A stretch of DNA of 64,000 bases from an uncultured Myxococcales bacterium (GTDB taxonomy: Bacteria; Myxococcota_A; Polyangia; Fen-1088). Positions 10,985 to 63,194 of the stretch are shown in pieces. Each line of letters starts with the position of its first letter. Position 1 is the first letter of the stretch. Under the pieces are notes generated by a model, which was not told the DNA's origin, made no database searches, and saw only the letters and a list, made by a program, of their open reading frames with translations. A program made the position numbers and the translations under genes. The stretch spans positions 293 through 64,292 of the forward strand of contig CAZYFU010000001.1 of assembly GCA_964647025.1 (NCBI GenBank). The letters run 5' to 3'.

Positions 10985-11010
10985 AGCGAGCTCCTGACTT
11001 GTGCGCTGAC

Positions 11011-14854: not shown

Positions 14855-14887
14855 ACAAATCGGACCATGACTGTCGGAGATGTGGTG

Positions 14888-40237: not shown

Positions 40238-40426
40238 CACAGACCTCCATCCATCCAAGCAAAGCAACCGAACGACCCGACTTCCTGATGCACGAGCCGA
40301 CCTACCGCCGGCCGACTCACAACCCTGTCAATTCCAATACCCCCGACGCAGCCCGGATGCAAACCATTCCGCTTCGTGCCGAGCAAACACGAATCGCTGC
40401 GCGGCTTTCTGCTATTCTCCTTCGTC

Positions 40427-41398
40427 ATGCATAGCAGCTCGAAAGCCCGCGCGTTCCTTGGACTGTTCGTCTCGGCGGTGATGACGACCGCGGTCGCCTG
40501 TGGCAGCGACAGTGAGCAGACCGGCCCCGCCGACGCGAGCATTGGTGTGCCCGACGCCCCCATGAACGACCGCGACGCGCATGTCTCCGAGGCGCACGCC
40601 GCCGTCGATCTTTCGGAGGCCGGGCCAGCAGGGATCCCCGTGGCGGGATACTGCACCAGCAAGCCAGCGATTCCCACGGTCACGAGCATCTCGGGCACCT
40701 GGGTGATCCGCGCCGTCGCCACGCAACTGGTGAGCGTCCTCGGAGGCACGCTGCGCCCGCAGACCCTGTTCTACATGGTCACCACCATGTCCCAGGCGGG
40801 CGACAAGGTCACGGCCAGCGGCTTCTACTGCGATCGCGCGCAAATCGATCAACCGGGTTCGATGGTCGCCGTGATCATGCCCGACAAGTGGGCGCACACC
40901 GAGAAGGTGGTGAATCGCTCGGGCACGCTCACGGTGGGCGCGGACCACGTTCCGCTGCTCCAGTTCGCCCCGTTGGTCGAGCTGGCAGGCGCCGTGCCCG
41001 GGCCCGACACCGATGCAGTGCCCACGACCCTCGACGATCCGCGCGTGATTGACGAGGACCAAGACGGCCATCCCGGCATCACGATCAACGTCACCGGCCT
41101 GGCCACCGGCAGCCTCTATGCCGTGCAACGGCAGGTGACCGCCATCGCGGCGATCCCCGTGGCGACGGATCGTTTCGAGGGCACCTTGACCTTCAGCTCT
41201 GAACAGAAGGTCCTCGACAGCAACCCGGCTGGACTCACCGTCATATATGCCACGGCGCAAGCCACCACCGACAGCACCCCATGTGCCAGCAACTTCAGCA
41301 TGGTCAAGGTCGCGGAGTCAGCCACTTCGATCGACGCAGGCCCGGCGGTCAGCTGCGCGTGGGTACGCGACAACGAGGGCGTCCTCTTTCCCAAGTAG
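40427..41398 (+). CDS. lipoprotein, hypothetical
   Basis: Internal Met followed by signal plus lipobox (AVMTTAVACGS). No family assigned. Confidence 0.5.
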   Translation: MHSSSKARAFLGLFVSAVMTTAVACGSDSEQTGPADASIGVPDAPMNDRDAHVSEAHAAVDLSEAGPAGIPVAGYCTSKPAIPTVTSISGTWVIRAVATQLVSVLGGTLRPQTLFYMVTTMSQAGDKVTASGFYCDRAQIDQPGSMVAVIMPDKWAHTEKVVNRSGTLTVGADHVPLLQFAPLVELAGAVPGPDTDAVPTTLDDPRVIDEDQDGHPGITINVTGLATGSLYAVQRQVTAIAAIPVATDRFEGTLTFSSEQKVLDSNPAGLTVIYATAQATTDSTPCASNFSMVKVAESATSIDAGPAVSCAWVRDNEGVLFPK

Positions 41399-41400
41399 CT

Positions 41401-42882
41401 CTATCTGGCGATACGAAAGGTCGCGCCTGCCCCGACCATGTATCCGGTGCTCTTCCAGCCTGGATATCCCGGATTGTTGGTCTGCAGGCCCGCCGTCCCT
41501 TCCGCCGCGAGGCCCGTGCGGAGGTCGATCGCCGTATCTGGGTGTTCGTCCACAACCGGATTGGCGGCGTTCGGGTCCTTGGTGACGTCCCGTGGAAGGA
41601 AGAGGGAGCCAAACACGCTGATGCCGGCTTCAAGGTCCTTGCCAAGAAACCTGACCGGCGCCTCGATGCCCAGGCTGGCGAGTAGGCGGGCGTTGTCGAC
41701 ATAGTTGGTGCGGCCGGTCTGGGCCGGCACGGGCGACGGGACGTAGCCGAGGTCCATGGTGATGTGTCGCTCCCGCCACAGGAAACCTCCCCCTACCGCG
41801 TAGCTGATGGTGTTGGTCCAGCTATCGAGGGGCTGAGCGCCCTGACGATTGCGATAGTCGGTCCACTGCTGCCACAGAAGCTGGCCCCCGATCTCCCAGG
41901 ATGCCCGGCCGTCCTCGCGAAGCGCCCCCCGATAGCTGCCGCCCAGCCCCACCCGCAGGGGGAGGCTGCCTTGCGTGAAGGTGTAGGTCTGCTTCACGTA
42001 GCTCTGCCCTTCGGGGTAACTGTAGTTCCAGAAACGCAGATCGTTCTCGCCCTGGGTCTCGTTCGCCGCCGGCAAGTGCACCGTCGCCACCACCGAGCTC
42101 GACGGGCGCGGTCGCACGGTGACCCCGAAATAGGGGTTGAATCGACTGTCGGTGTGAATGTCCTGCGCGATGAAGATCTTGGTTTGGTTCGCGGCGTTCG
42201 GCAGGTAGGCGGTCATCTTGGTTTGCGTGAAGATCGAAATGTCGATGCCCGCGCCCAGCGAGATCCACTCGGCGAGCTGCGAGCCCACCGCGAAGCTGAT
42301 GGACGTGGCCGCCAAGCGATCGCCGAGCAGCTCGAAGTGCAGTTGGTTCGAGAAGTACTGCTCGCGCTCGTCGGGCCAGAAGCCCTTCTGGTCGACGAAG
42401 GCCCGCACGGGCAGAAGCGCATGGAAGCCGAAGACCAAGGCCCTGCCCGCCAGCGGGCGAACCATCCCGAGGGACGCGTAGGTGACGCTCTGGTCGGCAT
42501 TGGTATTCGCGCGGCGGTTGGGCAGCTGCGAGGTAGGCAGTGGCCGCAAGTCGTCCGCGTTCGCCCCCGGGATCAGCGTGGAGTAGATGCTGTCCGGCAC
42601 GTCGACGCCCTCTGGCCGTTCCCTGAGGCGAATCTTGCCTTGCACGCCGACGGCGAAGAGCCCGATCTCTAGCTTCGGCATGGCTTCGGGCAGTAGCGAA
42701 GGGTTGAAGTACGTGACCGCCGAGCCGCGCGAGAGAACACGAGCCGTGAGCTGATTTCCGCCGGTCGTGGCGCCCAAGGTCTCGAGCACGCTGGACGCGC
42801 GCGCGACAGCGGCCCAACCTGGTGCGAGCGCGAGACAGGCCAGCAAGGCAAGGCGGCGGACTGAACGGCGGGACGTATGCAT
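41401..42882 (-). CDS. secreted outer-membrane-type hypothetical protein
   Basis: Signal peptide (RRLALLACLALAPGWAAVARA). Beta-rich, with an aromatic C-terminal residue pattern typical of OM barrels. Confidence 0.5.
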   Translation of the reverse strand: MHTSRRSVRRLALLACLALAPGWAAVARASSVLETLGATTGGNQLTARVLSRGSAVTYFNPSLLPEAMPKLEIGLFAVGVQGKIRLRERPEGVDVPDSIYSTLIPGANADDLRPLPTSQLPNRRANTNADQSVTYASLGMVRPLAGRALVFGFHALLPVRAFVDQKGFWPDEREQYFSNQLHFELLGDRLAATSISFAVGSQLAEWISLGAGIDISIFTQTKMTAYLPNAANQTKIFIAQDIHTDSRFNPYFGVTVRPRPSSSVVATVHLPAANETQGENDLRFWNYSYPEGQSYVKQTYTFTQGSLPLRVGLGGSYRGALREDGRASWEIGGQLLWQQWTDYRNRQGAQPLDSWTNTISYAVGGGFLWRERHITMDLGYVPSPVPAQTGRTNYVDNARLLASLGIEAPVRFLGKDLEAGISVFGSLFLPRDVTKDPNAANPVVDEHPDTAIDLRTGLAAEGTAGLQTNNPGYPGWKSTGYMVGAGATFRIAR

Positions 42883-43607: not shown

Positions 43608-44177
43608 CTACCTCCAGCCCAAGTACCGCGCGGTTCGCTCGCAGTAGGCGGCGTAGGCGTCGCCGTACCGTCTGGCGCAGGCGCGCTCCTCGGCCAGGAT
43701 CATCGGATGTTGGACGACCAGCATCGCGAGCAGCGTAGCCGACAGCAGTGGGTTGCCTGTGGCGATGCACGCCCCGAGAAATACGAGCGTGGCCGACACG
43801 TAGAGCGGGTTGCGCGAGAAACGGTACGGTCCAGACAGAATCGGCTGGTCGAGGGGCGTCTTGCTGAACACGCCGAGCGTCGCGAGAAAGCCAGCGGTCC
43901 CCAGCGAGGAAACGAGAACGCCCGCGACGAGCCACGCTCCGAACGAGGCAAGAGGAGCCAACGTCGATATCGCGACGAAGACGTAGGGCAGGAGGGAAGC
44001 CGTCACGGTGAAGAGCTTCTCCCGGATTCCATAACCCGTCATGTCCGACAAACGCTTGGCGACCTGCTTGTGTGGTAGCACGGCGAGCATGCCGATGATC
44101 AGCATGGGCGCGCAGAGCAGCCAAGCATTCCAGAAACCGAGGACGAGCGTCGGCGTAGCGTTCACAACGGCGAGCAT
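43608..44177 (-). CDS. isoprenylcysteine carboxyl methyltransferase (ICMT/PEMT)-family membrane methyltransferase
   Basis: Signature ILSGPYRFSRNPLYVS is present, in a multi-TM protein. The start is uncertain (Met at 44177 chosen). Confidence 0.6.
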   Translation of the reverse strand: MLAVVNATPTLVLGFWNAWLLCAPMLIIGMLAVLPHKQVAKRLSDMTGYGIREKLFTVTASLLPYVFVAISTLAPLASFGAWLVAGVLVSSLGTAGFLATLGVFSKTPLDQPILSGPYRFSRNPLYVSATLVFLGACIATGNPLLSATLLAMLVVQHPMILAEERACARRYGDAYAAYCERTARYLGWR

Positions 44178-44236
44178 ACATCGCGGTGGGATATGGGAGA
44201 GGTCGCCTCGGTCACAGTCCGCCCCGCTTTGGCAGA

Positions 44237-44587
44237 TCAGTACGCGTGGCAGCCGAAACAATCCGGGGTCACGCCAGCTTGTTCATGGCAGCGATCGCAG
44301 AACTGCTGCCGGTTGGCGTGACAGCCCTGGCACGAAGAGATCCCTTGAGCCTGCGCGCTCCGGTCGCCGCTCCTCACCACGCGATCACGCATCGCCTTGA
44401 GGTGGGTCATGTGCTGGTAGCGCATCTCTGCTCTCGGCAGGACGCAACGGGTGCCCGCGCGTGCAGGCTCGAGCCATGGCGAGGATGGCGAGGGGCGCGC
44501 CGCGAAGCCAACCAGCGCCACCAGCAGCGGTACCACCAGCGCGGCGAGGCCAAGAACGACAACCCGCCGAGACCGCCTGGCGCTCAT
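44237..44587 (-). CDS. DsrJ-like triheme cytochrome c (second copy), translationally coupled to qmoC
   Basis: 116 aa. Signal anchor MSARRSRRVVVLGLAALVVPLLVALVG. Three CxxCH motifs (CQGCH, CDRCH, CFGCH). ATGA overlap with the qmoC stop and a GGAGG RBS. Paralogous to dsrJ at 62817. Confidence 0.75.
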   Translation of the reverse strand: MSARRSRRVVVLGLAALVVPLLVALVGFAARPSPSSPWLEPARAGTRCVLPRAEMRYQHMTHLKAMRDRVVRSGDRSAQAQGISSCQGCHANRQQFCDRCHEQAGVTPDCFGCHAY

Positions 44588-45813
44588 ACCTTGCCTCCGT
44601 CTCGGGACGGCTGCTCGGCCCGCTCGCGATGGAAGCCGCGACGACCGGTGTGCTCGGCATAGACCATCGCCACGGTCCGGTACACCACGTGCGCGAGCTT
44701 GCTGTAGGGCACAAGCAGGATCAACGCGAACACCAACGCGAGGTGAACCAGGTAAACCGCGTGGCGAAGGGGCTCGACGCGCAGCCAGTGCAGGCCCTCG
44801 GAGGCAAAGCCTGACAGACCAATCAGAAGCAGAAGCGCCAGCAAGATCCAATCCGAGCTGCGCGTGGCGCCCGAGCTCTCCGGCCTTCGCCAGCGTTCCC
44901 ACAGCATGAGAGACGTCCCGAGCAAGAGTGACGCCCCTCCCAGGTTCGCCAGGATCTTCCAGGGACTCCACAAGGCGAACGGATACACGGTGCCGGCGAG
45001 CAGCGGATTCCAGCGCGCCGTCACGGCCCAGAAGCTCGTCAGCACGAGCGCGCCGCAGCCGAAGACGACGAAGAGGTGATGTCTGCGCCGGACTTGGTTG
45101 GTCGCACACGCGGCGAAGTCGTCGTGGAACACGATACGCGACAGGACCGCGCGCAGGCTCGAACCGATCGGCCGTCCGCGTGGTCTTCCGTCGGCGGCGG
45201 ACATGCTTCGCCAGAACGTGCTCGCGCCGCGCACCAGCACCGCCATGTCGAACGCCAACAGCGCACCGAACAGGCTGCCCAGCAGCCAGTGGGGCAAGCC
45301 ATTCCAAAAAGGAAACACCGCCCGGGGACCAGTCAGCGACAGCTCGAACGAAGTCGCGCCCAGCGCCTGCCACATGCTCGAAGCACCCAGCAACACGACG
45401 AGCGCGCCCGCCACGATCACGAGCACGTTGACCGGTCGGTTCGCCCACCGGCCGAACCAACGTGGCGACGAGTGATGGATGATGTGCTCACGCCTGAGCG
45501 CGGCCATCACGTCGCTCGGCCGAGCGCCCCGAGGGCAACGCCGCGTGCAGTCTCCGCACTGGTGACAAAGCCACGGGTCGGGGTCGCTCATCAAGCGATC
45601 CCGCAGGCCCCATTGCGCCCAGAGCATCTCCTTGCGGGGCCCCGGCGACTCGGCAGCGAGGATCTCGCACACGCTGGAGCAGGTCGCGCACTGCATGCAC
45701 TTACGCAAGTCCTCACCGCCGCTTGCCAGCACGCCCGCGAGCAAGTCCCGGTCCGGCCGCAGGCGCTGCCTGCGACCTTCGACCTGACGCTCGCTTGGAC
45801 TTCCGTCGGACAT
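44584..45813 (-). CDS. qmoC: quinone-interacting membrane-bound oxidoreductase subunit C (HdrC-like FeS domain fused to HdrE-like membrane cytochrome b)
   Basis: Two CxxCxxCxxxC ferredoxin motifs (CMQCATCSSVC, CHQCGDCTRRCP) followed by 5-6 TM helices with conserved His residues. Start taken at the Met just after the qmoB stop. Confidence 0.8.
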   Translation of the reverse strand: MSDGSPSERQVEGRRQRLRPDRDLLAGVLASGGEDLRKCMQCATCSSVCEILAAESPGPRKEMLWAQWGLRDRLMSDPDPWLCHQCGDCTRRCPRGARPSDVMAALRREHIIHHSSPRWFGRWANRPVNVLVIVAGALVVLLGASSMWQALGATSFELSLTGPRAVFPFWNGLPHWLLGSLFGALLAFDMAVLVRGASTFWRSMSAADGRPRGRPIGSSLRAVLSRIVFHDDFAACATNQVRRRHHLFVVFGCGALVLTSFWAVTARWNPLLAGTVYPFALWSPWKILANLGGASLLLGTSLMLWERWRRPESSGATRSSDWILLALLLLIGLSGFASEGLHWLRVEPLRHAVYLVHLALVFALILLVPYSKLAHVVYRTVAMVYAEHTGRRGFHRERAEQPSRDGGKV

Positions 45814-45817
45814 GGGG

Positions 45818-48055
45818 CTACGAATCCTTGAAGGGATTGGGACCCAGGGCATCCAGGTGCTTGACGAAGTCGTCGATCAGCTTGGGCAAGGTCAGGTAGT
45901 CCGCGAGGGTCACGTGATCCACGCGCACCCGCTGGTCTTCGAGAGCCATCTGCTTGAGCTTCTGCTTGATGTTTTCGCTGCGCGTGGCCAGGAGCTCACT
46001 GCCTCGGGTGTAGTGACACTGGGTCTGCTCGCCAGGTTTGCAGCCCAGCATGAGCACGCCGTCGAAGCCGCGCGCGAACGCATCCGCCAGCCACACCACG
46101 TTGATGGCACCCAAGCATCGAACGGGGATCGCCCTGACGAAGGCGCTCCAACGCTGCCCATGGAAGCCCGCCAGCTCGAGCGCGGGGAAGGCGTCGTTCT
46201 CGCACAGAAGCATCAGGATGCGCGGCTTCTCGTCGAACTCGCCCGGAACCTCGATGGACTTGATCATCCGCGAGACCAGATCGATCGAATAGTCGGCGTA
46301 CGAGATGATGCGCTCGGGGCAGGCGCCCAGGCAGATACCGCAGCGTCGACAACGGCCGGGATTCGGCTTCGGCGTGCCCTTTTCGTCTTCGTCGAGCGTA
46401 CCGAACGGACACTCCTCCGTGCAACGCTTGCACTGGGTGCAACGCTGGAGATTGAAGGCGGGGGGCGAGATGTCACCCCAGCGCGGGTGCATGGCCTCGC
46501 CGAGCGCGCAGTGCTCGATGGCCTGGATGGCCTTGAGCGCCGCTCCCTCGCCATCGACGATGCAGCCCGCCAGGTCGCCTGGCGCCCGCAAACAGCCCGC
46601 GGCATAGATGCCGGTCCGCCGGGTCTCGTACGGGAAACAGATGAAGTGCGAATCCGGAAAGCCGTACTCGAGCGCCGGCAAATCCGGGCCCTGACGGTAG
46701 GTGAGCCCGAGAATCTCGGTGCCCTCGATGGGCGACAGTCGGTCGACGGTGGCCTGCAAGACCTCGACGTTGCCCTCGCCCTTCGCGAGGTTCTTGCGCG
46801 CATCCTTCAGCTCGCGCAGGGCCAGCCCGTCCGCCGCCGCCGGCACCATGCCCACTGCGAGCACCACCAGATCGGCCTCTAGATCGATCGCGTCGCCGAG
46901 CTGGCTCTTGCCGAGTTGGACGAGCAATCCGTCGGCAGAGGGCTCCACGCCGGTCACGTCACCCTTGCAGATAAAGATGCCCCGATCCTCTTGCGCCCGT
47001 CGGTAGAAATCCTCGTGCAGCCCCGGCGTGCGAATCTCCTTCGCGACCACGTAGGCCTCGCAACTCGGCTCCAGCTCGCGCAGCCACAGGGCCTGCTTGA
47101 GCGTCACGCGACAGCACACGTTCGAGCAGTACGGCAGGTGCTGGGGATCACGCGAACCGGCGCATTGGATGAAGGCGATGCGCGTGGGTTTCTTGCCGTC
47201 GGATGGACGACGAACCTTCCCCTCGCCCAGCATACGCTCGAGCTCGACGCTGGTGACGACGTCCGGCGATTTGCCGTAGCCCAAGTGCGGAAGCTTGTGC
47301 GCGTCGTACGGCCGAAAACCGGTCGCCTGCACGATGGCGCCGACGCGGGTCGAGACCTCTCGCTCGCCCACGCTCAGCACGACCTCGAACTGCCCCGGCT
47401 GCCCCGAGATCGACTTCACCGTCGCGCCGCAGTGAACCTCGATGTTGGGATCGGCCGCGATCGCCTCGCAGCGGTTCGCCAGATCCGGTTCCTGCAGGTC
47501 CCGACACGGCGCGCAGCTCGGGAGCACGCGCTTCCAGGTGCGCAACCAGCCGCCCAAGGACTCCGCCTTCTCGACCACGACGACCTTGTACCCGGCCCGC
47601 GCGGCACCGGACGCCGCCGCCATCCCCGTGGGACCGCCGCCGACCACCAGCACGGTCCGCTCGGCTGGCAATGGCTGTGCCTGCGGAAGCTCGACGCGCG
47701 AGGCCCGGATGGTGCCCATGCGAATGACGTCCTCGGCCAGCATCTGCGTGTCTTCGTGCTTCGGCTCGTGGCTCGCCACCACCAGCTCGCGCAGACTGAC
47801 ACGCTCGACGTGACAGCCCGGGCGCGCGAAGGCATCGGCATGAAACCGCGCCGAGCACGCCGCGACCACCAGCGCGCCCGCCCCACCGGCCAGCGCCTCG
47901 TCGATGACTGGGGTCGCGGCCTGTCCGCACAGAAGCGGTACGGACTTCACCAGCGCGACGCCCTCTAATTTCGCGGCGGTCTTCTCCAGCTTCGGCAGGT
48001 CGAGCGACTCGCCGATCTTGCAGCTCTGGCAGATGAGGACGGCAGCCTTGGCCAT
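45818..48055 (-). CDS. qmoB: Qmo subunit B (HdrA-like flavoprotein with ferredoxin and MvhD-like domains)
   Basis: 745 aa. FAD-binding VLVVGGGPTGMAAA. Multiple 4Fe-4S Cys clusters (CTQCKRCTEECP, CRRCGICLGACP). Typical QmoB length and domain order. Confidence 0.85.
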   Translation of the reverse strand: MAKAAVLICQSCKIGESLDLPKLEKTAAKLEGVALVKSVPLLCGQAATPVIDEALAGGAGALVVAACSARFHADAFARPGCHVERVSLRELVVASHEPKHEDTQMLAEDVIRMGTIRASRVELPQAQPLPAERTVLVVGGGPTGMAAASGAARAGYKVVVVEKAESLGGWLRTWKRVLPSCAPCRDLQEPDLANRCEAIAADPNIEVHCGATVKSISGQPGQFEVVLSVGEREVSTRVGAIVQATGFRPYDAHKLPHLGYGKSPDVVTSVELERMLGEGKVRRPSDGKKPTRIAFIQCAGSRDPQHLPYCSNVCCRVTLKQALWLRELEPSCEAYVVAKEIRTPGLHEDFYRRAQEDRGIFICKGDVTGVEPSADGLLVQLGKSQLGDAIDLEADLVVLAVGMVPAAADGLALRELKDARKNLAKGEGNVEVLQATVDRLSPIEGTEILGLTYRQGPDLPALEYGFPDSHFICFPYETRRTGIYAAGCLRAPGDLAGCIVDGEGAALKAIQAIEHCALGEAMHPRWGDISPPAFNLQRCTQCKRCTEECPFGTLDEDEKGTPKPNPGRCRRCGICLGACPERIISYADYSIDLVSRMIKSIEVPGEFDEKPRILMLLCENDAFPALELAGFHGQRWSAFVRAIPVRCLGAINVVWLADAFARGFDGVLMLGCKPGEQTQCHYTRGSELLATRSENIKQKLKQMALEDQRVRVDHVTLADYLTLPKLIDDFVKHLDALGPNPFKDS

Positions 48056-48058
48056 GCC

Positions 48059-49330
48059 CTACCCTCCCCCCGCCGAGCAGACGGCCAGGGCCCGCAGGAC
48101 CGCGGCGGTCGCATCGCGGACCGCACAGGCGACGTCCATCGGTTCACGCGCACAGCCGGCGACCAGCTGGCCTGCCGATGGCTGCATCTGGCTGAGGAAA
48201 CCGTAGCGGTCGCGCGCCAGATCTGGCTTGGCTGGGGACGAGACTATGCCCGTGGCCAGCACCACCAGATCGACACGGTGGCGAAGACGCTTGCCCTGGT
48301 TCGTGTCCTCGACGTCGAGGATCGGTTTGCCTGCGTCCACCGTCACTTTCGACACCTTGCCCGGAACGAAGTGGATCTTGGGATCCCGCTCCGTCTCGGC
48401 CAGGAAGGTCTCCTGCCGGCCAGTGGCTCGTCGGTCGATGTAGTAGATGGAGATCTCGGCATCCGGGAGCTGCGCGCGCACGTAGCGCGCATGCTTGATC
48501 GAGGCCATGCAACAAAGTCCCGAGCAGTAGGGCAAATGGGCATCGTCGCGGGAGCCCGCACACTGGACGAAGGCCACGCTGGCAGGCGCACCACCGTCGG
48601 ACGGGCACACAACGCGGCCCGCGGTCGGGCCGTGAGGCGACGCCAGCCTTTCCATCATCATGTTGGTGATGATGTCCGGGTGCGCGCCGATGCCGAGGTC
48701 GGTGAGGTTCGAGGCCTCGTACGGTTGCCATCCCGTGGCCCAGATGACGGCCGCCACATCCAGGTCGAAAGGCCGTGGTTGCATGGACAAGTCAATGGCC
48801 TGCGAGGGACACGCGGAAGCGCACTTTGCGCAGCTTGCGCCGGTGCACGCCTCGCCGTCGATGGTGTAGCGGGTGGGGAAGGCCCCTGGGTACGTCAGGT
48901 ACGCCGCCTTGCTCTTGCCGAGCCCGAAGTCGAAAGCGCTGGGCCGCTCGACCGGACACACGGACGCGCAGGTTCCGCACGCCGAACAGTGCTCGGCGAT
49001 GAAGCGCGGCTCCTGCCGAAGCGAGACCCGGTACTTCCCCGGCGCTCCCGACACGGCCAACACCTCGGTCAATGTGTGAACCGTGATGCGTGGGCTGGTG
49101 CGGATGCGACGCAGGTTGATCTCCAAGCCGCACACCGGCGGGCACAGCTTGGGGAAGTACTGGTACATCTGGGCCACGCGGCCGCCGAGGTTCGGCTCGC
49201 GCTCGACCAGCACGACGTCGCACCCGGCCTCCGCCGCCTCGACGGCGGCGGAGATCCCGGCAATGCCTCCGCCGACGACGAGCAGCTTGCCGCGCGTCCG
49301 GCCGGGTGCTGTGGTGCTTGGGGTGGTCAC
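48059..49330 (-). CDS. qmoA: Qmo subunit A (HdrA-like flavoprotein)
   Basis: FAD-binding LLVVGGGIAGISAA. HdrA-like Cys motifs (CSACGTCASVCP, CAKCASACP). A GTG start at 49330 overlaps the aprA stop (GTGA). The ORF-track ATG at 49381 would overlap aprA by 55 nt. Confidence 0.8.
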   Translation of the reverse strand: MTTPSTTAPGRTRGKLLVVGGGIAGISAAVEAAEAGCDVVLVEREPNLGGRVAQMYQYFPKLCPPVCGLEINLRRIRTSPRITVHTLTEVLAVSGAPGKYRVSLRQEPRFIAEHCSACGTCASVCPVERPSAFDFGLGKSKAAYLTYPGAFPTRYTIDGEACTGASCAKCASACPSQAIDLSMQPRPFDLDVAAVIWATGWQPYEASNLTDLGIGAHPDIITNMMMERLASPHGPTAGRVVCPSDGGAPASVAFVQCAGSRDDAHLPYCSGLCCMASIKHARYVRAQLPDAEISIYYIDRRATGRQETFLAETERDPKIHFVPGKVSKVTVDAGKPILDVEDTNQGKRLRHRVDLVVLATGIVSSPAKPDLARDRYGFLSQMQPSAGQLVAGCAREPMDVACAVRDATAAVLRALAVCSAGGG

Positions 49331-51231
49331 CGCTCGGAGTCGCGCGTGAGGTACTTCACCGGGCGCTTGATCATCGTCCATTCGCCCGTCTGCGGATCCC
49401 GTTTGGTGTTGCAGAACGCCAGCCAGTTGGCCTGGTCCAGCGTCGGCTTGTCAGAGCGCACGTAGTAGCCGGGCCACCGGGTCTCGTCCCGGAACAGCAT
49501 GGACCGCATGTGCGCCTCGGCTTGCAGCAGGCGGTGCCGGTTCTCCCAGCAGCGCATCAGCTCGTGCAGGGTCTCGGCGCCCAGCTTGTCTGCGTCCTCG
49601 CGCAGGAAGGCCAGCATCTCCAGGCCCTTTTCGAGCTGGGTCTTGCTGGTGGCGAGCTGGGTGGACACGCCGCCCGCGTACTCGTCCATGATCTTCTGCA
49701 AGCGAGCCATCATCTGCTTCGGGCGCAGGTAGGCGGGGTTGATGTCCGGATCCGTGGTCTCCTCCTTGTGCTGCTCGAAGTTCGAGAGGGGCTTGAGCAT
49801 CTCGCCGATCATCCCCTGAACCTGAGCGTCAGAGACCGGCGCCCCCGCGCCCTTGTCGACGATGAACTGCAGCGCCGCTTTGCCGGCGATGCGCCCCTCG
49901 GTGAACGAACCCGACGAGAACTTGTGGCTGGAGGCGCCGCTGGCGTCCCCCGCCGCGAACAGCCCCTGCACGGTGGTCATGTTCGCGTAGCCCCAGAAGT
50001 ACTCGTTCTCGGTGTCGCCGGTCTGCAGATCCTTCGGCCCCGACACCCACGCGCCCGAGGCGCCCGAGTGCGATCCGATGAAGTAGGGCTCGCAGGCCAT
50101 GATCTCCGACGGCTTCTTGTCGGGCTCGACGTTGGTGGACGCCCACAAGAGCGCCTGGGCGATGGTCATGTCCAGGAAGTCCTCCCACGCCTCGCTCTCC
50201 AGCTCCTTCAGCTTCTTCTTGGCTGCCTTCTCGTCGGGCATCGACTGGCTGATCTTCTTGATCGCCTCTTCGGTGCGCATGTAGATGGGGCCCTTGCCCT
50301 TCTGGATGTCGAGCATCATGAGCCAATTGCGCAGGTTGGCCGGGGTCGGCTTGGCCTGGCCGTACGGCCCCCACTTGGTCAGCTCGGCGGCGTTGGTGGT
50401 CATGTAGTCTTCGCCGAGGGCGTTGGTGGCGAGCGACTTGAACAGCAGGAACCACGCGCCCACGGGGCCGTATGCATCCTTGAAGCGCACGGGGACGAAG
50501 CGGACTTCCTGGCAGGTCATCTCGGCACCCGCCGAGATGGTGAACGCGGCGCTGCCGGCCGAGTTGAAGGGCGGATACCACGAGCGGCCGAGGCCCTCGC
50601 CGGTGGAGCGCGGGCGGAACACGTGCACCGCGCCGCCCATGGTGGCCAGCACGGCCTTGGCCTTGAAGATATAGACCGTGTTCTCGCGGTTCGAGAAGCC
50701 GACGGCGCCCACGCAACGGCCTTCGGACATCAGCGGGTGCGTGATGAACACGCGCTCGAAGTACTGGCCACCACACTCGGCCAGCGCCTTCTTGGCGGCC
50801 TCGGCGACGATGACCTTGTACGACTCGCCGCTGATCATGACCTGCCAGCGCCCCTCGTGGACGTAGTTGCCGGCGTCATCCTTCCAGATGGGCAGGCCCC
50901 ACTTCTCGAACATGTGCACCGTGGAATCCACGTGGCGGGCGATGTTGGCCACGAGGTCCTCGCGGGTGATGCCCATCAGGTCGTTGCGCACGTAGTCGAC
51001 ATAGTCGCGCAGGGTGTTCTTCCCGCCGTTCGAGTCGAGATAGAGATTGATGGCGGACAGGCCCATGGCGACGGCACCAGATCTGTCCATGGCGGCCTTG
51101 TCCACCAAGGTGACCTTGAGCCCGTGCTTCTTCGCCCAGTGGGCGGTCTCGACCGCGGCTCCGCAAGCGGCCATACCGCCGCCGCAGATGAGGAGGTCGG
51201 TTTCGACCACGACTGTTTTGAAATCCGACAT
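49327..51231 (-). CDS. aprA: adenylylsulfate (APS) reductase alpha subunit
   Basis: Start at MSDFKTVVVETDLLICGGGMAACGAA (FAD fold) with a GGAGGA RBS. 634 aa. AprA-specific blocks conserved throughout. The upstream 121 codons of the long ORF are junk. Confidence 0.9.
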   Translation of the reverse strand: MSDFKTVVVETDLLICGGGMAACGAAVETAHWAKKHGLKVTLVDKAAMDRSGAVAMGLSAINLYLDSNGGKNTLRDYVDYVRNDLMGITREDLVANIARHVDSTVHMFEKWGLPIWKDDAGNYVHEGRWQVMISGESYKVIVAEAAKKALAECGGQYFERVFITHPLMSEGRCVGAVGFSNRENTVYIFKAKAVLATMGGAVHVFRPRSTGEGLGRSWYPPFNSAGSAAFTISAGAEMTCQEVRFVPVRFKDAYGPVGAWFLLFKSLATNALGEDYMTTNAAELTKWGPYGQAKPTPANLRNWLMMLDIQKGKGPIYMRTEEAIKKISQSMPDEKAAKKKLKELESEAWEDFLDMTIAQALLWASTNVEPDKKPSEIMACEPYFIGSHSGASGAWVSGPKDLQTGDTENEYFWGYANMTTVQGLFAAGDASGASSHKFSSGSFTEGRIAGKAALQFIVDKGAGAPVSDAQVQGMIGEMLKPLSNFEQHKEETTDPDINPAYLRPKQMMARLQKIMDEYAGGVSTQLATSKTQLEKGLEMLAFLREDADKLGAETLHELMRCWENRHRLLQAEAHMRSMLFRDETRWPGYYVRSDKPTLDQANWLAFCNTKRDPQTGEWTMIKRPVKYLTRDSER

Positions 51232-51233
51232 GA

Positions 51234-51731
51234 CTACTTTCCTCCGTTCTGCGATCGGGTCAGGGCAAGCTCCGGAAGGCCGGCGTGCTTGACGGGTCCT
51301 TGTTCCGTGTTGAGGGCCGCGGGCTCTCCGACCAAAAGCGGGCTCGACAGCTCCTCGGATGCCGTGGGGAAGTGGCCGTACGGCTCCACCTGGCCTTCGG
51401 ACACGCCCCGTCGGATGGGGAACTTGAAACGCTTGGGTCTGATCTCGGGATTGCGGAACTGCACGGTCCACATGATCTCCTCCGTGCTGCGCATGGCGCT
51501 CACGCTGGCGCCCATGGGGACGAAGTCCGAGTAGCCGCGCACCTCGATGGCCTGGTTCGGACAGAGCTTCACGCAATTGAAGCACTCCCAGCACATCACG
51601 GGGTCTCGGTTGTACGCCTTCATCTTCTGACGATCCAAGGTCATCAGATCATTGGGGCAGATGTACTGACAGGCCGTCTTGTCCAAGGCCTTGCACCCAT
51701 CACACTTGCTGGCGATGACATAACTTGGCAT
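51234..51731 (-). CDS. aprB: APS reductase beta subunit (2x[4Fe-4S])
   Basis: Start at MPSYVIASKCDGCK. Cys clusters CDGC...C...CP and CWECFNCVKLCP. 165 aa. Stop/start overlap (TGATG) with the upstream dsrP-like gene. Confidence 0.88.
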   Translation of the reverse strand: MPSYVIASKCDGCKALDKTACQYICPNDLMTLDRQKMKAYNRDPVMCWECFNCVKLCPNQAIEVRGYSDFVPMGASVSAMRSTEEIMWTVQFRNPEIRPKRFKFPIRRGVSEGQVEPYGHFPTASEELSSPLLVGEPAALNTEQGPVKHAGLPELALTRSQNGGK

Positions 51732-52963
51732 CAGGTCTCCATTGGCGCGGCCCCTGCCATGCCCGGTTGGCGCGCGGTTGAGGGTGGTTGTTGTTCTGCA
51801 TGGACTGAAACAGGCACGCTTGCCTGGGCGATCGCGAAGATGGGACGGGCGAGCAGGAACGCCAAAGCACCGCCGGCGTAGATGCCGACGACGATGGCGA
51901 CCTCGGGCAAACTCGGCCGGTAGTCGCTGACATAGCCGAGCGGCGACGGAACGAAACCGGAGGTGACCAGGCAAAGTCCTTTGTCGACGAGGACCGAGAC
52001 GAGAATCGAAGCCGTGGCGACGGTCGCGAGCGCCGGACGGCGCCGAAGGGCCGGCACCAACAGCACGACCAGCGCGAACAGAAGCAGACCCCAGGAGAGG
52101 TAGTTGAAGGCGAGAAGTCCGTTGTGGCCGTCGAGCCCCAAGAAGAGGTATGCGAGGTGCTCCCGCGCATCCGGAACTCCGGAGTACAGCGCGGTGAACG
52201 CCTCCAGCCCTGCCAACAGCAGGCTCAGGACGGCGGCGTAGGTCATGACCACCGAGAGCCGCACGATGGCCTCACGGCCGACATCGAACACCTTGGCGCG
52301 TGCCAAGGCCCCGGCGAGCAGGATCAACAAGGCCGGCCCCGATGCGAAGGCCGTTGCCAAAAAGCGCGGCGCCAGCACCGCCGTCATCCACGCGGGCCGG
52401 GCCGACAGCCCCGCGTAGAGCAGCGCCGTCACCACGTGGATACCAATGGCCCAAGGAATGGTGGCGAGCGCCAAGCCTCGTGCCCACTTCGCCGACGAGG
52501 GCCCGCGCGAGAACAGGGCCAGGAAGAGACCGACGACCGACAGCCCGAGATAGCCCGTCAACGTCAGACAGTCCCAGAACATCAAGGACGACGGCGACGG
52601 GTAGAGCAGGATGTTGAGCAGCCGCCGCGGCTGACCGAGATCCACGAAGATGCACGACAGCGCCTGGCAGAGCGCGATGATGGCGACCACCTCTCCCAAA
52701 ATCAGCGCCCGAGCGAACACCTTCTGGCGGTGCACGTAGTACGGCAGCAGCACCGTGACCGCCGACGCCCCGATGCCCACCAGGAAGGTGAACTGCGCGA
52801 TGTAGAGCCCCCAGGGTACGTCGCGCGAGAGGCCCGTCACGCCGAGGCCATCGCGGCTCTGCACGGCGTACGCGACCGCGCCAAGCAGGGCCAGAAGGAA
52901 CAGCACCGCCATCGCGACTCGACCGAACGTGCGGGTAGGCGTTTGTTGCGGCATCGGCGTCAC
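51731..52963 (-). CDS. NrfD/PsrC-family integral membrane protein (DsrP-like quinone-interacting subunit)
   Basis: 410 aa, about 10 TM helices, NrfD-family architecture. It is coupled (ATGA) to the upstream FeS subunit gene. Confidence 0.75.
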   Translation of the reverse strand: MTPMPQQTPTRTFGRVAMAVLFLLALLGAVAYAVQSRDGLGVTGLSRDVPWGLYIAQFTFLVGIGASAVTVLLPYYVHRQKVFARALILGEVVAIIALCQALSCIFVDLGQPRRLLNILLYPSPSSLMFWDCLTLTGYLGLSVVGLFLALFSRGPSSAKWARGLALATIPWAIGIHVVTALLYAGLSARPAWMTAVLAPRFLATAFASGPALLILLAGALARAKVFDVGREAIVRLSVVMTYAAVLSLLLAGLEAFTALYSGVPDAREHLAYLFLGLDGHNGLLAFNYLSWGLLLFALVVLLVPALRRRPALATVATASILVSVLVDKGLCLVTSGFVPSPLGYVSDYRPSLPEVAIVVGIYAGGALAFLLARPIFAIAQASVPVSVHAEQQPPSTARQPGMAGAAPMET

Positions 52964-53745
52964 AGCAGATAGAAGATGCTCGGTTCGGTGCCGAGCCCGG
53001 GCTTACGGCGCAGCACCTGACGGGACGCCAAGAGCTGCCTGAGCGGTGAGCTGGCGTCCTCCAGATTGCCGAAGGTCAGCGCCGCCGTTCCACGCACGCG
53101 ACAAGTGTCCACGCACAAGGGGATCTGCCCTGCGTCCAGCCGCTCCACGCACAGGTTGCACTTCTCGACCACTCCCGCGGTTCGCGCGGGATAGTTGTTC
53201 GCGGTCTGTTCGGGCTTCGGATTCTCCCAATTGAAGCTGCGGGCACCGAAGGGGCACGCGGTCATGCAGTAGCGGCAACCGATGCAACGATGCGCATCCA
53301 TCGCCACCACGCCATCGCTGCGGCGCCAAGTCGCTTGCGTGGGGCACACCCGGGTGCAAGGGGCGTTCGTGCAGTGGTTGCACAGCACCAGCACGGGCAT
53401 CTGCCGACGAGCATCGCTGTCGTAGGGATGGGCTTGCTCGGGGAAGACACGAGCATAGTGCTCCTTCCATAACCACTTGATCTCGTGTTTGGGATCCGCC
53501 ATCACCGGCACCCGGTGGGCAGCGTGGCAGGCGTCGATACAGGCCCGACACCCCGACTGGCTGGCGCAGCGACCGAGGTCGACGGCCATTCCCCAGCGCG
53601 GGATCGCCCGCCCCGCGACGCTTGCCAGCCCCGTGCGCGACGAGACCCCCGTGACCGCCGCCGCCCCCAGCGCGGCCCCACCTGCGGTCAGCAGAGCCCG
53701 CCGGCTGAGCTCGCACGTCTCGAGCGGTCCTTGGGCCCGCTTCAT
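52960..53745 (-). CDS. periplasmic 4x[4Fe-4S] ferredoxin subunit with Tat signal (DsrO/PsrB/HmcB-like)
   Basis: Twin-arginine motif SRRALLTAGGAALGAAAV. Four Cys clusters: CASQSGCRACIDAC, CNHCTNAPCTRVCP, CIGCRYCMTACP, CNLCVE...CVDTC. Start taken at MKRAQGPL. Confidence 0.75.
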   Translation of the reverse strand: MKRAQGPLETCELSRRALLTAGGAALGAAAVTGVSSRTGLASVAGRAIPRWGMAVDLGRCASQSGCRACIDACHAAHRVPVMADPKHEIKWLWKEHYARVFPEQAHPYDSDARRQMPVLVLCNHCTNAPCTRVCPTQATWRRSDGVVAMDAHRCIGCRYCMTACPFGARSFNWENPKPEQTANNYPARTAGVVEKCNLCVERLDAGQIPLCVDTCRVRGTAALTFGNLEDASSPLRQLLASRQVLRRKPGLGTEPSIFYLL

Positions 53746-53801
53746 CGCTTGCGCTCCAGCGCTCGTCGGCATCGGCACACGTGCACGCCCGCTGGCACAG
53801 C

Positions 53802-53817
53802 ACAAACCGTGCCGATC
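53802..53817 (-). promoter_or_regulatory. candidate sigma-54 (-24/-12) promoter for the dsrO-like..qmo operon
   Basis: The minus strand reads cGGCACG-gttt-gTGCt, close to the TGGCACG-N4-TTGCW consensus, with -12 GC and -24 GG at the correct spacing. It lies about 60 nt upstream of the start at 53745. Confidence 0.3.
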
Positions 53818-56514: not shown

Positions 56515-56748
56515 ATGGAGAACCTGACCGCAGAAGCACTCGCCGACGCCATGTACGCCATGGTCAAGGACTGCCACGGCAAGCGCCAGCTCAAGCCTCT
56601 CGATCTGACCAAGGCCATGATGGAACGCTTCGGCGAGGGCTGCGACAAGAGCCTGTGCAAAGAGGCCATCCGGCTGCTCATCGACGACGAGCGCTGCACC
56701 TATTCCTACGCGGGCGGCAGCTACATCGTTCTTCCTCCGGAGAAGTAG
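56515..56748 (+). CDS. dsrD: DsrD (small winged-helix protein of reductive-type dsr operons)
   Basis: 77 aa, located immediately after dsrB. The C-terminal pattern LLIDDERCTYSYAGGSYIVL resembles DsrD's ...L..DevleYwSSGSTtmY. Confidence 0.7.
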   Translation: MENLTAEALADAMYAMVKDCHGKRQLKPLDLTKAMMERFGEGCDKSLCKEAIRLLIDDERCTYSYAGGSYIVLPPEK

Positions 56749-56751
56749 GCT

Positions 56752-58434
56752 ATGGCGCTGCTGCGAAAGAAGGAGGGCACGAAGCCGCTGCAGTTTCGCA
56801 CCAGCGCGCCGTCCAGCAGCGCGGTCTCCACGCTGCGCCCCCGGCGCACCCCCAAGTCGAGCCCCTGCCAGTCCTCTTGCCTGGCCGGGACCGACGTGCG
56901 CGGCGTGGTGGCTCTGCTCGCGCAGCGAGAGAAGCTGGGGCTGACGGTCGACCAGGCCTGCGAGCGCGCGTTCGCCCTGATCGCCGAGACCAATCCCTTC
57001 CCCGCCACGACGGGCCGCATCTGCCCCCATCGCTGCGAGGAGAACTGCAGTCGCCATCAGAAGGACGGCGGCGTTGCCGTCGGCACCATCGAGCGCTTCA
57101 TCGGAGACTTTGCCCTAGAGCATGGTCTAGCCTTGCCCGGCGGCCCGGCCTCCCCGACCCAGACCGAGAGAGTAGCGATCATCGGAGCCGGACCAGCCGG
57201 GCTTTCTTGCGCCTACCAGCTCGTGCGTCGCGGGTACGCATGCACGTTGTTCGAGGGCATGCCACAGCCCGGCGGCATGCTCCGGTACGGCATCCCGTCG
57301 TACAGACTTCCCGCGCACGTCTTCGAGGGTGAGATCGACCGCATCCTTCAGCTCGGGGTCGAGCTGCGAACGCGAACCATGATCGGTCGTGACGTCAGCT
57401 TGGACGAGCTTCGCCAGCAGTTCGCCGCCGTGTTCGTCGCCCCCGGTGCGGCGGTCAGCCGCGCAGTCGACATCCCGGGCGCGAAAGGCGCCTGTGTCTT
57501 CAGGGCCGTGGATTTCCTGCGCGACGTCGCCAGGCATGCCCCTCCAGGCCTCGGTCGTCACGTGGTCGTGGTGGGCGGGGGAAACACCGCCATCGACGCG
57601 GCCCGGGTGTCCGCACGCCTGCTCGGAGGGCACGGTGAGATCACCCTGCTTCGGCAGGAGAACGAAACCGTAGACGAGGATCTTCGCGACGCCATGGAGG
57701 AGGGCGTCTCGGTGGAGTTCCTGTCGACGTTGGACTCGGTGGTCCGCGACGCCATGGGCGGCATCGATCACGTCGTCATCCAGCGCATCGAGTTGGGAGA
57801 GAAGGACGGAAATGGCTTCCCGACGCTGATCCCCTTGGCTGGCAAGAGCTACGAGCTGCGCGCCGATGCCGTCATCCTGGCGCTGGGACAGAAGCCCAAC
57901 GTGAGCCCGATCTTCCACGAGAACCCCGACCAGTACGAGCCCGACGCCACGGGGAAGACCAAGGCGGCGCGGGTGTGGCGTGGCGGCGACGCGGTCACTC
58001 CCAGCTTCGCCGCGGTGGTCATCGGCCAGGGTCGCCAGGTTGCGTTGTCCATCGACGCCGAGCTGCGAGGCCGTCCGCTCGAAGAACCGGCCAAGCTGCC
58101 CGACCTGGCCACGAGCCGGCTCAAGCTCGAGTGCTACGATCGGATGCCGAGGCTCGGCCGGCGGCTCATTCCGGTGCGAGAGCGCCTCGCGGATCTGCAA
58201 AGCGAGATCGAGCCCGGCTACGAGCCCACCGCGGTGTTGCGAGAAGCCGCTCGCTGTCTGTCGTGCGGCAACTGCTTCGGCTGCGAGCGCTGCTGGATGT
58301 ACTGCACGCCCGGCTGCTTCTCGAAGGTCGCAAAGACGGAACCAGGAACCTACTTCACCATCAACCTCGAGAAATGCGACGGCTGCCGCAAGTGCGCCGA
58401 AGAGTGTCCGTCGAGCTTCTTGGAAATGGGCTGA
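56752..58434 (+). CDS. dsrL: GltD-family NAD(P)H:acceptor oxidoreductase with C-terminal ferredoxin domain (DsrL-like)
   Basis: FAD fold (VAIIGAGPAGLSCA) and NAD(P) fold (VVVVGGGNTAIDAA) are present. N-terminal Cys cluster (CPHRCEENC) and C-terminal 2x4Fe-4S (CLSCGNCFGCERC; CDGCRKCAEECP). Position within the dsr operon supports the call. Confidence 0.7.
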   Translation: MALLRKKEGTKPLQFRTSAPSSSAVSTLRPRRTPKSSPCQSSCLAGTDVRGVVALLAQREKLGLTVDQACERAFALIAETNPFPATTGRICPHRCEENCSRHQKDGGVAVGTIERFIGDFALEHGLALPGGPASPTQTERVAIIGAGPAGLSCAYQLVRRGYACTLFEGMPQPGGMLRYGIPSYRLPAHVFEGEIDRILQLGVELRTRTMIGRDVSLDELRQQFAAVFVAPGAAVSRAVDIPGAKGACVFRAVDFLRDVARHAPPGLGRHVVVVGGGNTAIDAARVSARLLGGHGEITLLRQENETVDEDLRDAMEEGVSVEFLSTLDSVVRDAMGGIDHVVIQRIELGEKDGNGFPTLIPLAGKSYELRADAVILALGQKPNVSPIFHENPDQYEPDATGKTKAARVWRGGDAVTPSFAAVVIGQGRQVALSIDAELRGRPLEEPAKLPDLATSRLKLECYDRMPRLGRRLIPVRERLADLQSEIEPGYEPTAVLREAARCLSCGNCFGCERCWMYCTPGCFSKVAKTEPGTYFTINLEKCDGCRKCAEECPSSFLEMG

Positions 58435-59889: not shown

Positions 59890-60172
59890 AATCGACGAGG
59901 ACGGTTTCATTCAAGAGCCCGACAAGTGGAGCGAGGCCGTCGCCGCCGCATTGGCTGCCACCGAGGGCGTGGGTGAGCTTGGCGAAAGACACTGGGTGCT
60001 GATCAACTATCTGCGCGACTACTACAAGAAGTTCGGCATGGCCCCCATGATTCGAAAGATGTGCAAGGAGGTGAACATGAAGCTTACCGAGGTCTACGAG
60101 CTGTTCCCGACCGGCCCGGCCAAGGGCGCCTGCAAAGCCGCGGGCCTGCCCAAGCCCACGGGTTGCGTTTGA
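59855..60172 (+). CDS. dsrC: DsrC (TusE/DsrC family sulfur carrier)
   Basis: 105 aa. N-terminal VDEDGF motif. C-terminal arm ...CKAAGLPKPTGCV carries the two conserved Cys. Confidence 0.9.
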   Translation: MASITVQNLQIEIDEDGFIQEPDKWSEAVAAALAATEGVGELGERHWVLINYLRDYYKKFGMAPMIRKMCKEVNMKLTEVYELFPTGPAKGACKAAGLPKPTGCV

Positions 60173-60182
60173 GGCTCGCCAC

Positions 60183-61193: not shown

Positions 61194-61194
61194 C

Positions 61195-62817: not shown

Positions 62818-63194
62818 TGGACGTCGGGAAGATCGTCGGCGGAGCCGTCATCGCGGCCGTGATCGCCGCCGGCCCGCTGTGGGTCGCCACCGTGCGCGGC
62901 GCGAAGACCGAACCACTTGCGCAGCCCATCGGGACTGGGCCATGCATCGAGGCCGCGGACGCCATGCGCACGCGCCACCCGGCCCTGCTCTCCACATGGC
63001 GCGAACAGGTGGTTCGCGAAGGCCAGCGCGCCTATCACACCACCGATGGACGCGACGTACGCATCGGCCTCGGCGAGACCTGCCTCGGCTGCCACGGCGA
63101 GGCCAGCAAGTTCTGCGACCGCTGCCACGCCCAGAATGCCGTCACGCTCTCTTGCTGGCAGTGCCATGCACAGTCGCCGATCGCGCGACCTTAG
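62817..63194 (+). CDS. dsrJ: DsrJ (periplasmic triheme cytochrome c)
   Basis: 125 aa. TM/signal anchor at the N-terminus. Three CxxCH motifs (CLGCH, CDRCH, CWQCH). Start overlaps the dsrK stop (ATGA-type). Confidence 0.8.
   Translation: MDVGKIVGGAVIAAVIAAGPLWVATVRGAKTEPLAQPIGTGPCIEAADAMRTRHPALLSTWREQVVREGQRAYHTTDGRDVRIGLGETCLGCHGEASKFCDRCHAQNAVTLSCWQCHAQSPIARP

Follow-up and report, generated by a model that had tools for sequence, protein, structure and literature searches.

A second DsrJ-family cytochrome, encoded directly after qmoC in an uncultured Myxococcales bacterium, is a candidate subunit of the Qmo complex

QmoABC and DsrMKJOP are the described systems closest to the subject of this study, a gene for a DsrJ-like triheme cytochrome c that directly follows qmoC in DNA from an uncultured Myxococcales bacterium. 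QmoABC (or QmoAB-HdrBC) has been described without a cytochrome c subunit, and DsrJOP has been described only within DsrMKJOP, where its function has been called an enigma (PMC10861901, a 2024 paper in PNAS; PMC10504309; PMC10591310; PMC8477390). DsrJOP is co-distributed with type I QmoABC, and a qmoC-J-O-P cluster is not described in that work (PMC10504309, supplement). DVU0851, at the promoter-distal end of the qmo operon of Desulfovibrio vulgaris, is reported to lack homologues outside Desulfovibrio (PMC3125180), and therefore offers no precedent for a gene such as ours. Genes of the Dsr pathway have been reported in Myxococcota (10.1101/2021.07.06.451402; PMC10591310). We found no description of a Qmo-linked DsrJ or JOP in the full-text literature; subscription-only papers were outside the scope of that search, and a prior mention is possible.

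The stretch that we analyzed, here called the window, is 64,000 nucleotides (nt) long (GenBank assembly GCA_964647025.1, contig CAZYFU010000001.1, positions 293 to 64,292, forward strand). It encodes two DsrJ-family proteins, which we call J2 (44237 to 44587, minus strand) and J1 (62817 to 63194, plus strand). A first-pass annotation had read them as a duplicated DsrJ, with one copy beside dsrMK and the other beside qmoC. We propose, with moderate confidence, that the Qmo complex has J2 as a cytochrome c subunit facing the periplasm, in the way that DsrMKJOP has DsrJ.

J2 and J1 within the DsrJ family

J2 is encoded by an open reading frame (ORF) of 116 codons with the translation MSARRSRRVVVLGLAALVVPLLVALVGFAARPS...SSCQGCHANRQQFCDRCHEQAGVTPDCFGCHAY. 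Hydropathy analysis gave a single hydrophobic helix at the N terminus (residues 9 to 27) with Arg-rich residues ahead of it, and this corresponds to the signal-anchor helix of DsrJ. The last 31 residues hold all three CxxCH motifs (SCQGCH...FCDRCH...DCFGCHAY), at residues 86 to 90 (CQGCH), 97 to 101 (CDRCH), and 110 to 114 (CFGCH). J2 thus follows the DsrJ pattern of three CxxCH motifs in a protein of about 120 to 130 amino acids (aa). The J2 start codon overlaps the qmoC stop codon by 4 nt (ATGA, within GTATGA). A GGAGG ribosome-binding site, read from the sequence, lies 6 nt upstream of the ATG and within the 3' end of qmoC (44594 to 44598, minus strand). A terminator and promoter scan around J2 found no terminator directly after the gene and otherwise nothing decisive.

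J2 and J1 were the only ORFs with two or more CxxCH motifs in a six-frame scan of the window. BLASTP aligned them at 37% identity over 104 columns (E value of 5e-17), and the likeness reached well beyond the heme motifs. Both proteins matched the DsrJ model NF038038 from end to end. J1 scored 115.1 bits, above the 100-bit cutoff, and J2 scored 75.4 bits (E value of 4.6e-21), below it. These results, and the conserved columns described next, confirmed that J2 and J1 are paralogous triheme cytochromes of the DsrJ family, encoded after qmoC and after dsrK, respectively.

We compared 81 DsrJ-family proteins. Cys48, His59, Leu63, Arg67, Arg72, the three CxxCH motifs, and Phe96 (J2 numbering) were invariant, and Met55 (77 of the 81), Arg56, Gly74, Asp98, and Arg99 were nearly so. 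The candidate heme-ligating cysteine, which the first-pass annotation had singled out for checking, is therefore conserved in both copies and in every homologue compared (81/81). At the level of sequence conservation, J2 has the conserved Cys, Met, and His of DsrJ. The distal heme ligands of DsrJ have been described as a scheme of His/Cys, His/Met, and His/His (PMC10861901), and, judged by these conserved columns, J2 keeps candidate residues for all three. The FCDRCH site is identical in J2 and J1, as had been pointed out, but it is essentially invariant across the 81 proteins. It is a signature of the family, and thus gives no evidence for a close or recent kinship of the two copies.

Database searches with other resources added little. 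Pfam gave no significant domain for J2 or J1, and a sequence search of the PDB with J2 and with its profile found no DsrJ relative. The sole PDB match to J2, a DPY30 domain protein with an E value of 0.028, was spurious, and no solved structure of any J2 relative was found in the PDB. An AlphaFold 2 model of J2 had a mean predicted local distance difference test score of 67.7, with a poorly modeled heme domain, and a Foldseek search with this low-confidence model against the PDB returned nothing at an E value below 1.

Qmo-linked J proteins and QmoC::J fusions

To place J2 among its homologues, we mapped the window proteins onto 80 genome loci returned for a J2 profile. The loci held 82 J genes, of which 38 lay directly after qmoC and 15 after dsrK; the other 29, mostly from Magnetococcales, had an unrecognized upstream gene. 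The qmoC-J adjacency occurred in genomes of at least five phylum labels. The 28 qmoC-linked J loci outside the J2 clade came from Planctomycetota/Phycisphaerae, Gemmatimonadota, Acidobacteriota, and unclassified metagenome-assembled genomes (MAGs). Outside Myxococcota, the usual arrangement was qmoA-qmoB-qmoC-J-O'-P', where O' is a DsrO-like iron-sulfur (FeS) protein and P' is an NrfD-like membrane protein. Model organisms do, as a rule, have a single DsrJ, as the first-pass annotation had said. In MAGs of Planctomycetota, Gemmatimonadota, Acidobacteriota, and Myxococcota, however, it is common to find a second J that is linked to Qmo, and this J usually comes with an O'P' of its own. For the present analysis we defined an operational group, the Qmo-linked J(OP) module, by a J gene immediately downstream of qmoC, a J sequence closest to the qmoC-linked J proteins of other phyla (with a short linker and a C terminus of ...DCFGCHxY), and cognate O' and P' genes after J. 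J2 has the first two features, and the cognate O' and P' genes are missing in the window.

One locus stands apart from sulfur genes. On the complete Gemmatimonadota chromosome CP070812.1 (locus L039, 5194 to 12361), a lone qmoA-qmoB-qmoC-J-O'-P' cluster lies among unrelated neighbors, and neither apr nor dsr genes occur within 10 kb of it. This isolation hints that, in some phyla, the unit of six genes may also act for partners besides adenosine 5'-phosphosulfate (APS) reductase. Its QmoC (367.6 bits) and O' (294.7 bits on the DsrO model) pass their cutoffs. Its J (70.9 bits on the DsrJ model) and P' (81.7 bits against a DsrP cutoff of 350) fall short. The J2 score below the DsrJ cutoff is shared with other Qmo-linked J proteins, including the fusion proteins described below (59 to 62 bits).

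Among 5.8 billion proteins, we found 27 clusters of J2 homologues at 51 to 91% identity, all unnamed or hypothetical, and the next matches were at most 42% identical. In GTDB contigs (one genome per species), all matches of at least 47% identity were MAGs labeled Myxococcales, Polyangiaceae, or delta proteobacterium, which makes an uncultured member of Myxococcota the most likely source of the window. The gene order dsrO-dsrP-aprB-aprA-qmoA-qmoB-qmoC-J2 was present in every J2-clade locus of sufficient length, from about 10 species-level MAGs. A J1 orthologue (P0042) and a J2 orthologue (P0004) are encoded on one contig, where the dsr genes read dsrAB-76aa-L-N-C-M-K-J1-cysG, and the two-copy state is therefore conserved. 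The gene downstream of J2 varies; it is PEMT-like in the window, DPBB_1 in L001, and GH11 in L004. Three relatives (L006/L012, L013, and L014) have another FeS/NrfD pair, O'P', after J2; its O' is 37 to 41% and its P' is 28% identical to DsrO and DsrP, respectively, of the window. The window and most relatives lack O'P' at this place, and the sole O/P genes in the 64 kb are the canonical-type pair at 51731 to 53817. As a separate observation, L011 carries a second J2-like fragment (13640 to 13849), 54% identical over about 70 aa, 3.3 kb downstream of its intact J2. The ORF of this fragment has no CxxCH motif, and it may be a decayed duplicate.

We then searched 1.84 billion representative proteins with a hidden Markov model of the J2 clade. 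There were 812 matches at E values below 1e-3 and only four below 1e-30, which indicates that the J2 clade is small. Among the top matches were two long proteins, P0058 (561 aa) and P0060 (545 aa), in each of which a complete QmoC is joined through a linker and a seventh hydrophobic helix to a triheme domain like that of DsrJ. They scored 296.3 and 373.6 bits, respectively, on the QmoC model NF038018. P0058 was found on six contigs (loci L089 to L091) and P0060 on three (L092 and L093), from different samples, so neither is a one-off assembly error. P0058 lies in the Myxococcota-type block, O-P-aprBA-qmoAB-[qmoC::J], and O'P' genes are missing behind it. The context of P0060 is qmoAB-[qmoC::J]-O'-P', which is the arrangement of other phyla. 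P0058 and P0060 are thus two independent Rosetta-stone fusions of QmoC with J, in unrelated lineages. Hydropathy gave six helices plus one in the fusions. The N-terminal FeS domain of QmoC should be cytoplasmic by homology to HdrC, and six helices should then leave the C terminus of QmoC cytoplasmic as well. With this count of six plus one, the J anchor in the fusions would carry the heme domain to the periplasm.

The missing O' and P' genes raise the question of whether J2 is a functionless remnant of a qmoABC-J-O'-P' cluster that has lost them. Such a loss would explain why the window and most relatives have no O'P' behind J2, and a J2 score under the curated DsrJ cutoff could be read in the same way. 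However, the gene is under purifying selection. The ratio of nonsynonymous to synonymous substitution rates (dN/dS) of the mature part of J2 against its relatives was 0.06 to 0.36, although these values are rough because dS is near saturation. Against L001, the closest relative and likewise without O'P', the ratio was 0.10. The heme motifs and candidate ligands of J2 were invariant in 18 to 27 homologues, its ribosome-binding site and translational coupling are intact, and a related lineage without O'P' has even fused J to QmoC. The dN/dS values and the invariant motifs led us to reject a pseudogene or decaying remnant, which we regard as very improbable.

We used trees to assign the types of the O and P proteins (neighbor joining, 100 bootstraps). 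Each tree split into two clades with 100% support. The first clade unites the O and P proteins from the head of the Myxococcota operons, including those of the window, with dsrK-linked proteins from Acidobacteriota, Planctomycetota, and Desulfobacterota. The second contains the proteins of Magnetococcales and Nitrospinota and all qmoC-linked O' and P' proteins, including those after J2 in L006, L013, and L014. We therefore rejected the operon-head dsrOP genes as partners of J2 by descent, since the trees place them with dsrK-linked DsrOP at 100% bootstrap.

The J protein is too short for a well-resolved neighbor-joining tree. We therefore typed the J proteins by scoring them against profiles built for each context group, and by signature columns. 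For all ten Myxococcota J2 proteins, the highest score came from the profile built on Qmo-linked J proteins outside Myxococcota (105 to 122 bits), compared with 80 to 98 bits for the dsrK-linked reductive profile, 79 to 105 bits for Magnetococcales, and 89 to 107 bits for Nitrospinota. For J2 of the window, the corresponding scores were 118.4, 85.4, 97.6, and 106.8 bits. J1 gave the opposite result, as it reached 124.5 bits with the dsrK-linked reductive profile but 75.7 bits with the Qmo-linked one. Several features are common to J2 and the other J proteins linked to Qmo, namely, a short linker from VVRxG to heme 1, Asp109, Phe111, Gly112, and the C-terminal ...DCFGCHxY. By these sequence types, J2 is assigned to a separate Qmo-linked J lineage and is no recent copy of J1, and DsrMK-J1 with the operon-head DsrOP is typed as the canonical, reductive complex. 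A recent tandem duplication of J1 was rejected on the 37% identity and the different types given by the profile scores. The first-pass term "duplicated DsrJ" stands for a homologous pair, but the duplication was neither local nor recent, as J1 is of the dsrK-linked type and J2 of the Qmo-linked type. We prefer to describe J2 as one member of a widespread family of DsrJ-like proteins linked to Qmo.

A different function can be imagined for J2 within the Dsr system. It could be an alternative DsrJ isoform that swaps with J1 in DsrMK plus DsrOP, for example under other redox or sulfur conditions, and its place after qmoC would then reflect mere co-regulation in a sulfate-reduction regulon. Every invariant residue of the DsrJ family is kept in J2, the gene shares an operon with the canonical dsrOP, and the dsr and apr/qmo genes are adjacent and divergently transcribed, all of which would suit an isoform. 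However, the type that accompanies canonical DsrK, DsrO, and DsrP is J1 and not J2. Furthermore, J is fused to QmoC, and to no Dsr subunit, in two lineages; the Gemmatimonadota cluster occurs alone, with no dsr neighbors; and J2 has its own noncanonical O'P' in three relatives. We consider an exchange of J2 for J1 unlikely.

The single operon that encodes O, P, and J2 could also be taken to mean that J2 and the operon-head DsrOP form a separate JOP module, a periplasmic cytochrome:quinone oxidoreductase that is independent of both QmoC and DsrMK. Portable units of the NrfCD type that interact with quinones are known (PMC10861901), which would be in keeping with such a module. The QmoC::J fusions speak instead for a direct contact of J with QmoC, and the operon-head O and P belong to the canonical Dsr type, which usually pairs with J proteins of the J1 type. 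A free-standing JOP module is, in our judgment, still less probable than an isoform of DsrJ. The evidence agrees better with J2 as a Qmo subunit. The adjacency in 38 of the 82 surveyed cases, the conserved block, and the two fusions also make the qmoC-adjacent copy look dedicated to Qmo, as the first-pass annotation had supposed.

Operons and neighboring genes of the window

The eight genes from dsrO to J2 lie on the minus strand, and all of them abut or overlap. A promoter-like site is located ahead of dsrO (53915 to 53888, minus strand). The first gene, dsrO (52960 to 53817), encodes an FeS protein and was identified by NF045797 (275 bits, cutoff of 200) and by the O tree. The second, dsrP (51731 to 52963), belongs to the NrfD family (NF045798, 317 bits, and the P tree). 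It is followed by aprB (51234 to 51731; ORF MPSYVIASKCDGCK...), whose orthologues have the APS-reductase_C Pfam domain, and by aprA (49327 to 51231; TIGR02061, 863 bits). The next two genes encode HdrA-like proteins. One is qmoA (48059 to 49381), identified also by synteny, with an uncertain start that is probably near the aprA stop codon, and the other is qmoB (45818 to 48055), which has a FlpD/VhuD-like C terminus and is syntenic in all relatives. The qmoC gene (44584 to 45852) has an uncertain start codon. Its product has an HdrC-like FeS domain and a membrane domain of six helices, seen as six hydrophobic segments, and scored 318.6 bits on NF038018 (cutoff of 300). In this family, the membrane domain is an HdrE-like cytochrome b. 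The window thus has a QmoC equivalog beside two HdrA-like QmoA/B genes and aprBA, as expected of QmoABC.

The dsr genes are on the plus strand, divergent from the apr-qmo operon, in the order dsrA, dsrB, a 77-aa ORF, a dsrL-like gene, dsrN, dsrC, dsrM, dsrK, J1, and cysG. The products of dsrM (60081 to 61193) and dsrK (61162 to 62817) scored 309 bits on NF038037 and 680 bits on NF045796, respectively. J1, the canonical DsrJ of 125 aa, follows, and its ATG overlaps the dsrK stop codon (TGATG). The neighbors named in the first-pass annotation were thus correct, with AprA, QmoA, QmoB, and QmoC encoded upstream of J2, and DsrM and DsrK upstream of J1. The genes for DsrMKJOP are split in this genome: dsrMK-J1 lies in the dsr operon, before cysG, and dsrOP heads the aprBA-qmoABC-J2 operon. 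This split, which the first-pass annotation had missed, is kept in all Myxococcota-labeled relatives examined. In the relative L094, a NarI-like and CCG-domain pair, a DsrMK-like paralogue, follows J1 and cysG (12187 to 14681), and the window stops before that position.

Several other features of the dsr region were recorded. The 77-aa ORF between dsrB and the dsrL-like gene (56515 to 56748, plus strand; MENLTAEALADAMYAMVKDCHGKRQLKPLDL...) had no Pfam match, and a syntenic ORF of 76 to 77 aa occurs at the same place in the relatives L004 and L094. From its position, it could be a divergent DsrD-like protein. The dsrL position, beside reductive-type dsr genes, is held by a gene for a GltD-like NAD(P)-binding FeS flavoprotein (56749 to 58434, plus strand). 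It resembles the DsrL-2 situation discussed for Myxococcota and Acidobacteriota (PMC10591310). Because this dsrL-like gene stands alongside reductive-type dsr genes, the gene content leaves the direction of the pathway, reduction or oxidation, unsettled. Between dsrN and dsrM, the dsrC gene (approximately 59852 to 60169, plus strand) probably has a GTG start, and its product has two C-terminal cysteines (…CKAAGLPKPTGCV).

Directly after J2 there is a gene for a PEMT/ICMT-like membrane methyltransferase (43608 to 44261, minus strand), at a position that is not conserved in relatives. Its longest ORF overlaps the J2 stop codon, and the true start is probably farther downstream. Two ORFs without a family match, of 493 aa (minus strand) and 340 aa (plus strand), lie at 40376 to 42882. 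L001/L002 have a similar pair (499 and 330 aa, no Pfam match) at the corresponding position downstream of J2, and the two ORFs may form a conserved pair. Genes for sulfate activation of the assimilatory type lie at 9857 to 14887 (minus strand); they comprise cysD, a sulfotransferase gene, and a fusion of cysN and cysC (EF-Tu GTPase plus APS kinase). A dissimilatory sat gene was not seen in the 64-kb window.

Proposed role of J2 and comparison with known complexes

We suggest that J2 may dock on QmoC, as DsrJ belongs to DsrMKJOP, and that it may be a fourth Qmo subunit. It would descend from a Qmo-linked JOP module composed of J, a DsrO-like FeS protein, and an NrfD-like membrane protein. In the window lineage, J2 would either act on QmoC alone or use the canonical DsrOP co-transcribed at the operon head. 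Electrons may pass, in one direction or the other, between the periplasmic face or quinone site (O/P), the c hemes of J2, the b hemes of QmoC, QmoAB, and AprBA. By analogy, J2 could serve as the connection from the outer heme b of QmoC to either redox partners in the periplasm or an FeS/NrfD pair that interacts with quinone. In this scenario, APS reduction (or sulfite oxidation) would gain a second quinone or periplasmic connection. A more general form of the proposal is that QmoABC does not always have three subunits, and that QmoABC-J(-O'P') exists in Myxococcota, Planctomycetota, Gemmatimonadota, and Acidobacteriota as a transmembrane complex with an architecture parallel to that of DsrMKJOP. 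We regard this general form as evenly balanced between true and false.

Several points weigh against the proposal. The window lineage has no O'P' beside J2, and the role of J2 may differ from that in organisms with qmoABC-J-O'-P'. In the J tree, the Myxococcota J2 proteins and the other Qmo-linked J proteins did not form one clade, and the type of J2 was assigned from a small number of signature columns and from profile scores that exceed those of the next-best group by only 4 to 35 bits. Within the second clade of the O and P trees, monophyly of the qmoC-linked O' and P' proteins was recovered at a weak bootstrap of 28 to 37%. The surveyed loci are the 80 most J2-like matches, and the frequencies drawn from them are biased. 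The AlphaFold 2 model of J2 is too poor for looking at any interface. Finally, gene linkage and the QmoC::J fusions imply an association without proving it.

Two questions are open in dissimilatory sulfur metabolism: the purpose of DsrJOP with its unusual His/Cys heme, and the way in which quinol oxidation by QmoABC is coupled to APS reduction, which is thermodynamically marginal. If our proposal is true, a Qmo-attached J(OP) links both questions, and JOP is not specific to DsrC-trisulfide reduction. It would also point to a possible second connection of Qmo, to quinone or to the periplasm. JOP would then be a portable device for energy coupling or connection to the periplasm, used on different HdrE-type cytochromes b (DsrM or QmoC). 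The fusion proteins, the lineages with J but without O'P', and the stand-alone qmoABC-J-O'-P' clusters are natural experiments in this respect. If the proposal holds, an organism with J2 but no O'P', together with the QmoC::J fusions, would offer simplified systems for the role of a His/Cys-heme cytochrome. There is also a consequence for annotation. Counting DsrJOP genes in MAGs can misassign Qmo-linked O'P' as DsrOP or miss a Qmo-linked J, because Qmo-linked J proteins score under the DsrJ cutoff.

J2 shares a fold family with DsrJ (HmeE), the DsrMKJOP subunit, and resembles it in its anchor, CxxCH spacing, invariant Cys, Met, and His, and FCDRCH motif. Unlike DsrJ, it has a shorter linker before heme 1 and ends right after heme 3 (...DCFGCHAY). 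DsrJ is encoded within dsrMK-J-OP, and it is J1 that holds the position after dsrK; the J2 gene follows qmoC instead, with no O/P genes after it. Compared with QmoABC, the window has a regular aprBA-qmoABC set, with a QmoC over the equivalog cutoff. Unlike the three-subunit Qmo described previously (PMC10504309, PMC10591310), it has a fourth, translationally coupled cytochrome c gene, which elsewhere is fused to QmoC. The group to which J2 belongs is a widespread and apparently undescribed set of Qmo-linked DsrJ-like cytochromes.

In DsrMKJOP and the Hmc- and Tmc-type transmembrane complexes, an HdrE/NarI-like cytochrome b is joined to a cytochrome c of the periplasm, and some of these complexes also have an NrfCD-like module. 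The putative QmoABC-J(-O'P') would follow the same logic as DsrMK plus DsrJOP, in that an HdrE/NarI-type membrane subunit with heme b is combined with an FeS/NrfD pair and a J cytochrome. However, the P' proteins match the DsrP model poorly, at about 80 bits against the cutoff of 350. The cytoplasmic module would also differ, as it would be QmoAB, HdrA-like flavoproteins that serve APS reductase, and not DsrK, a CCG-type DsrC-trisulfide reductase.

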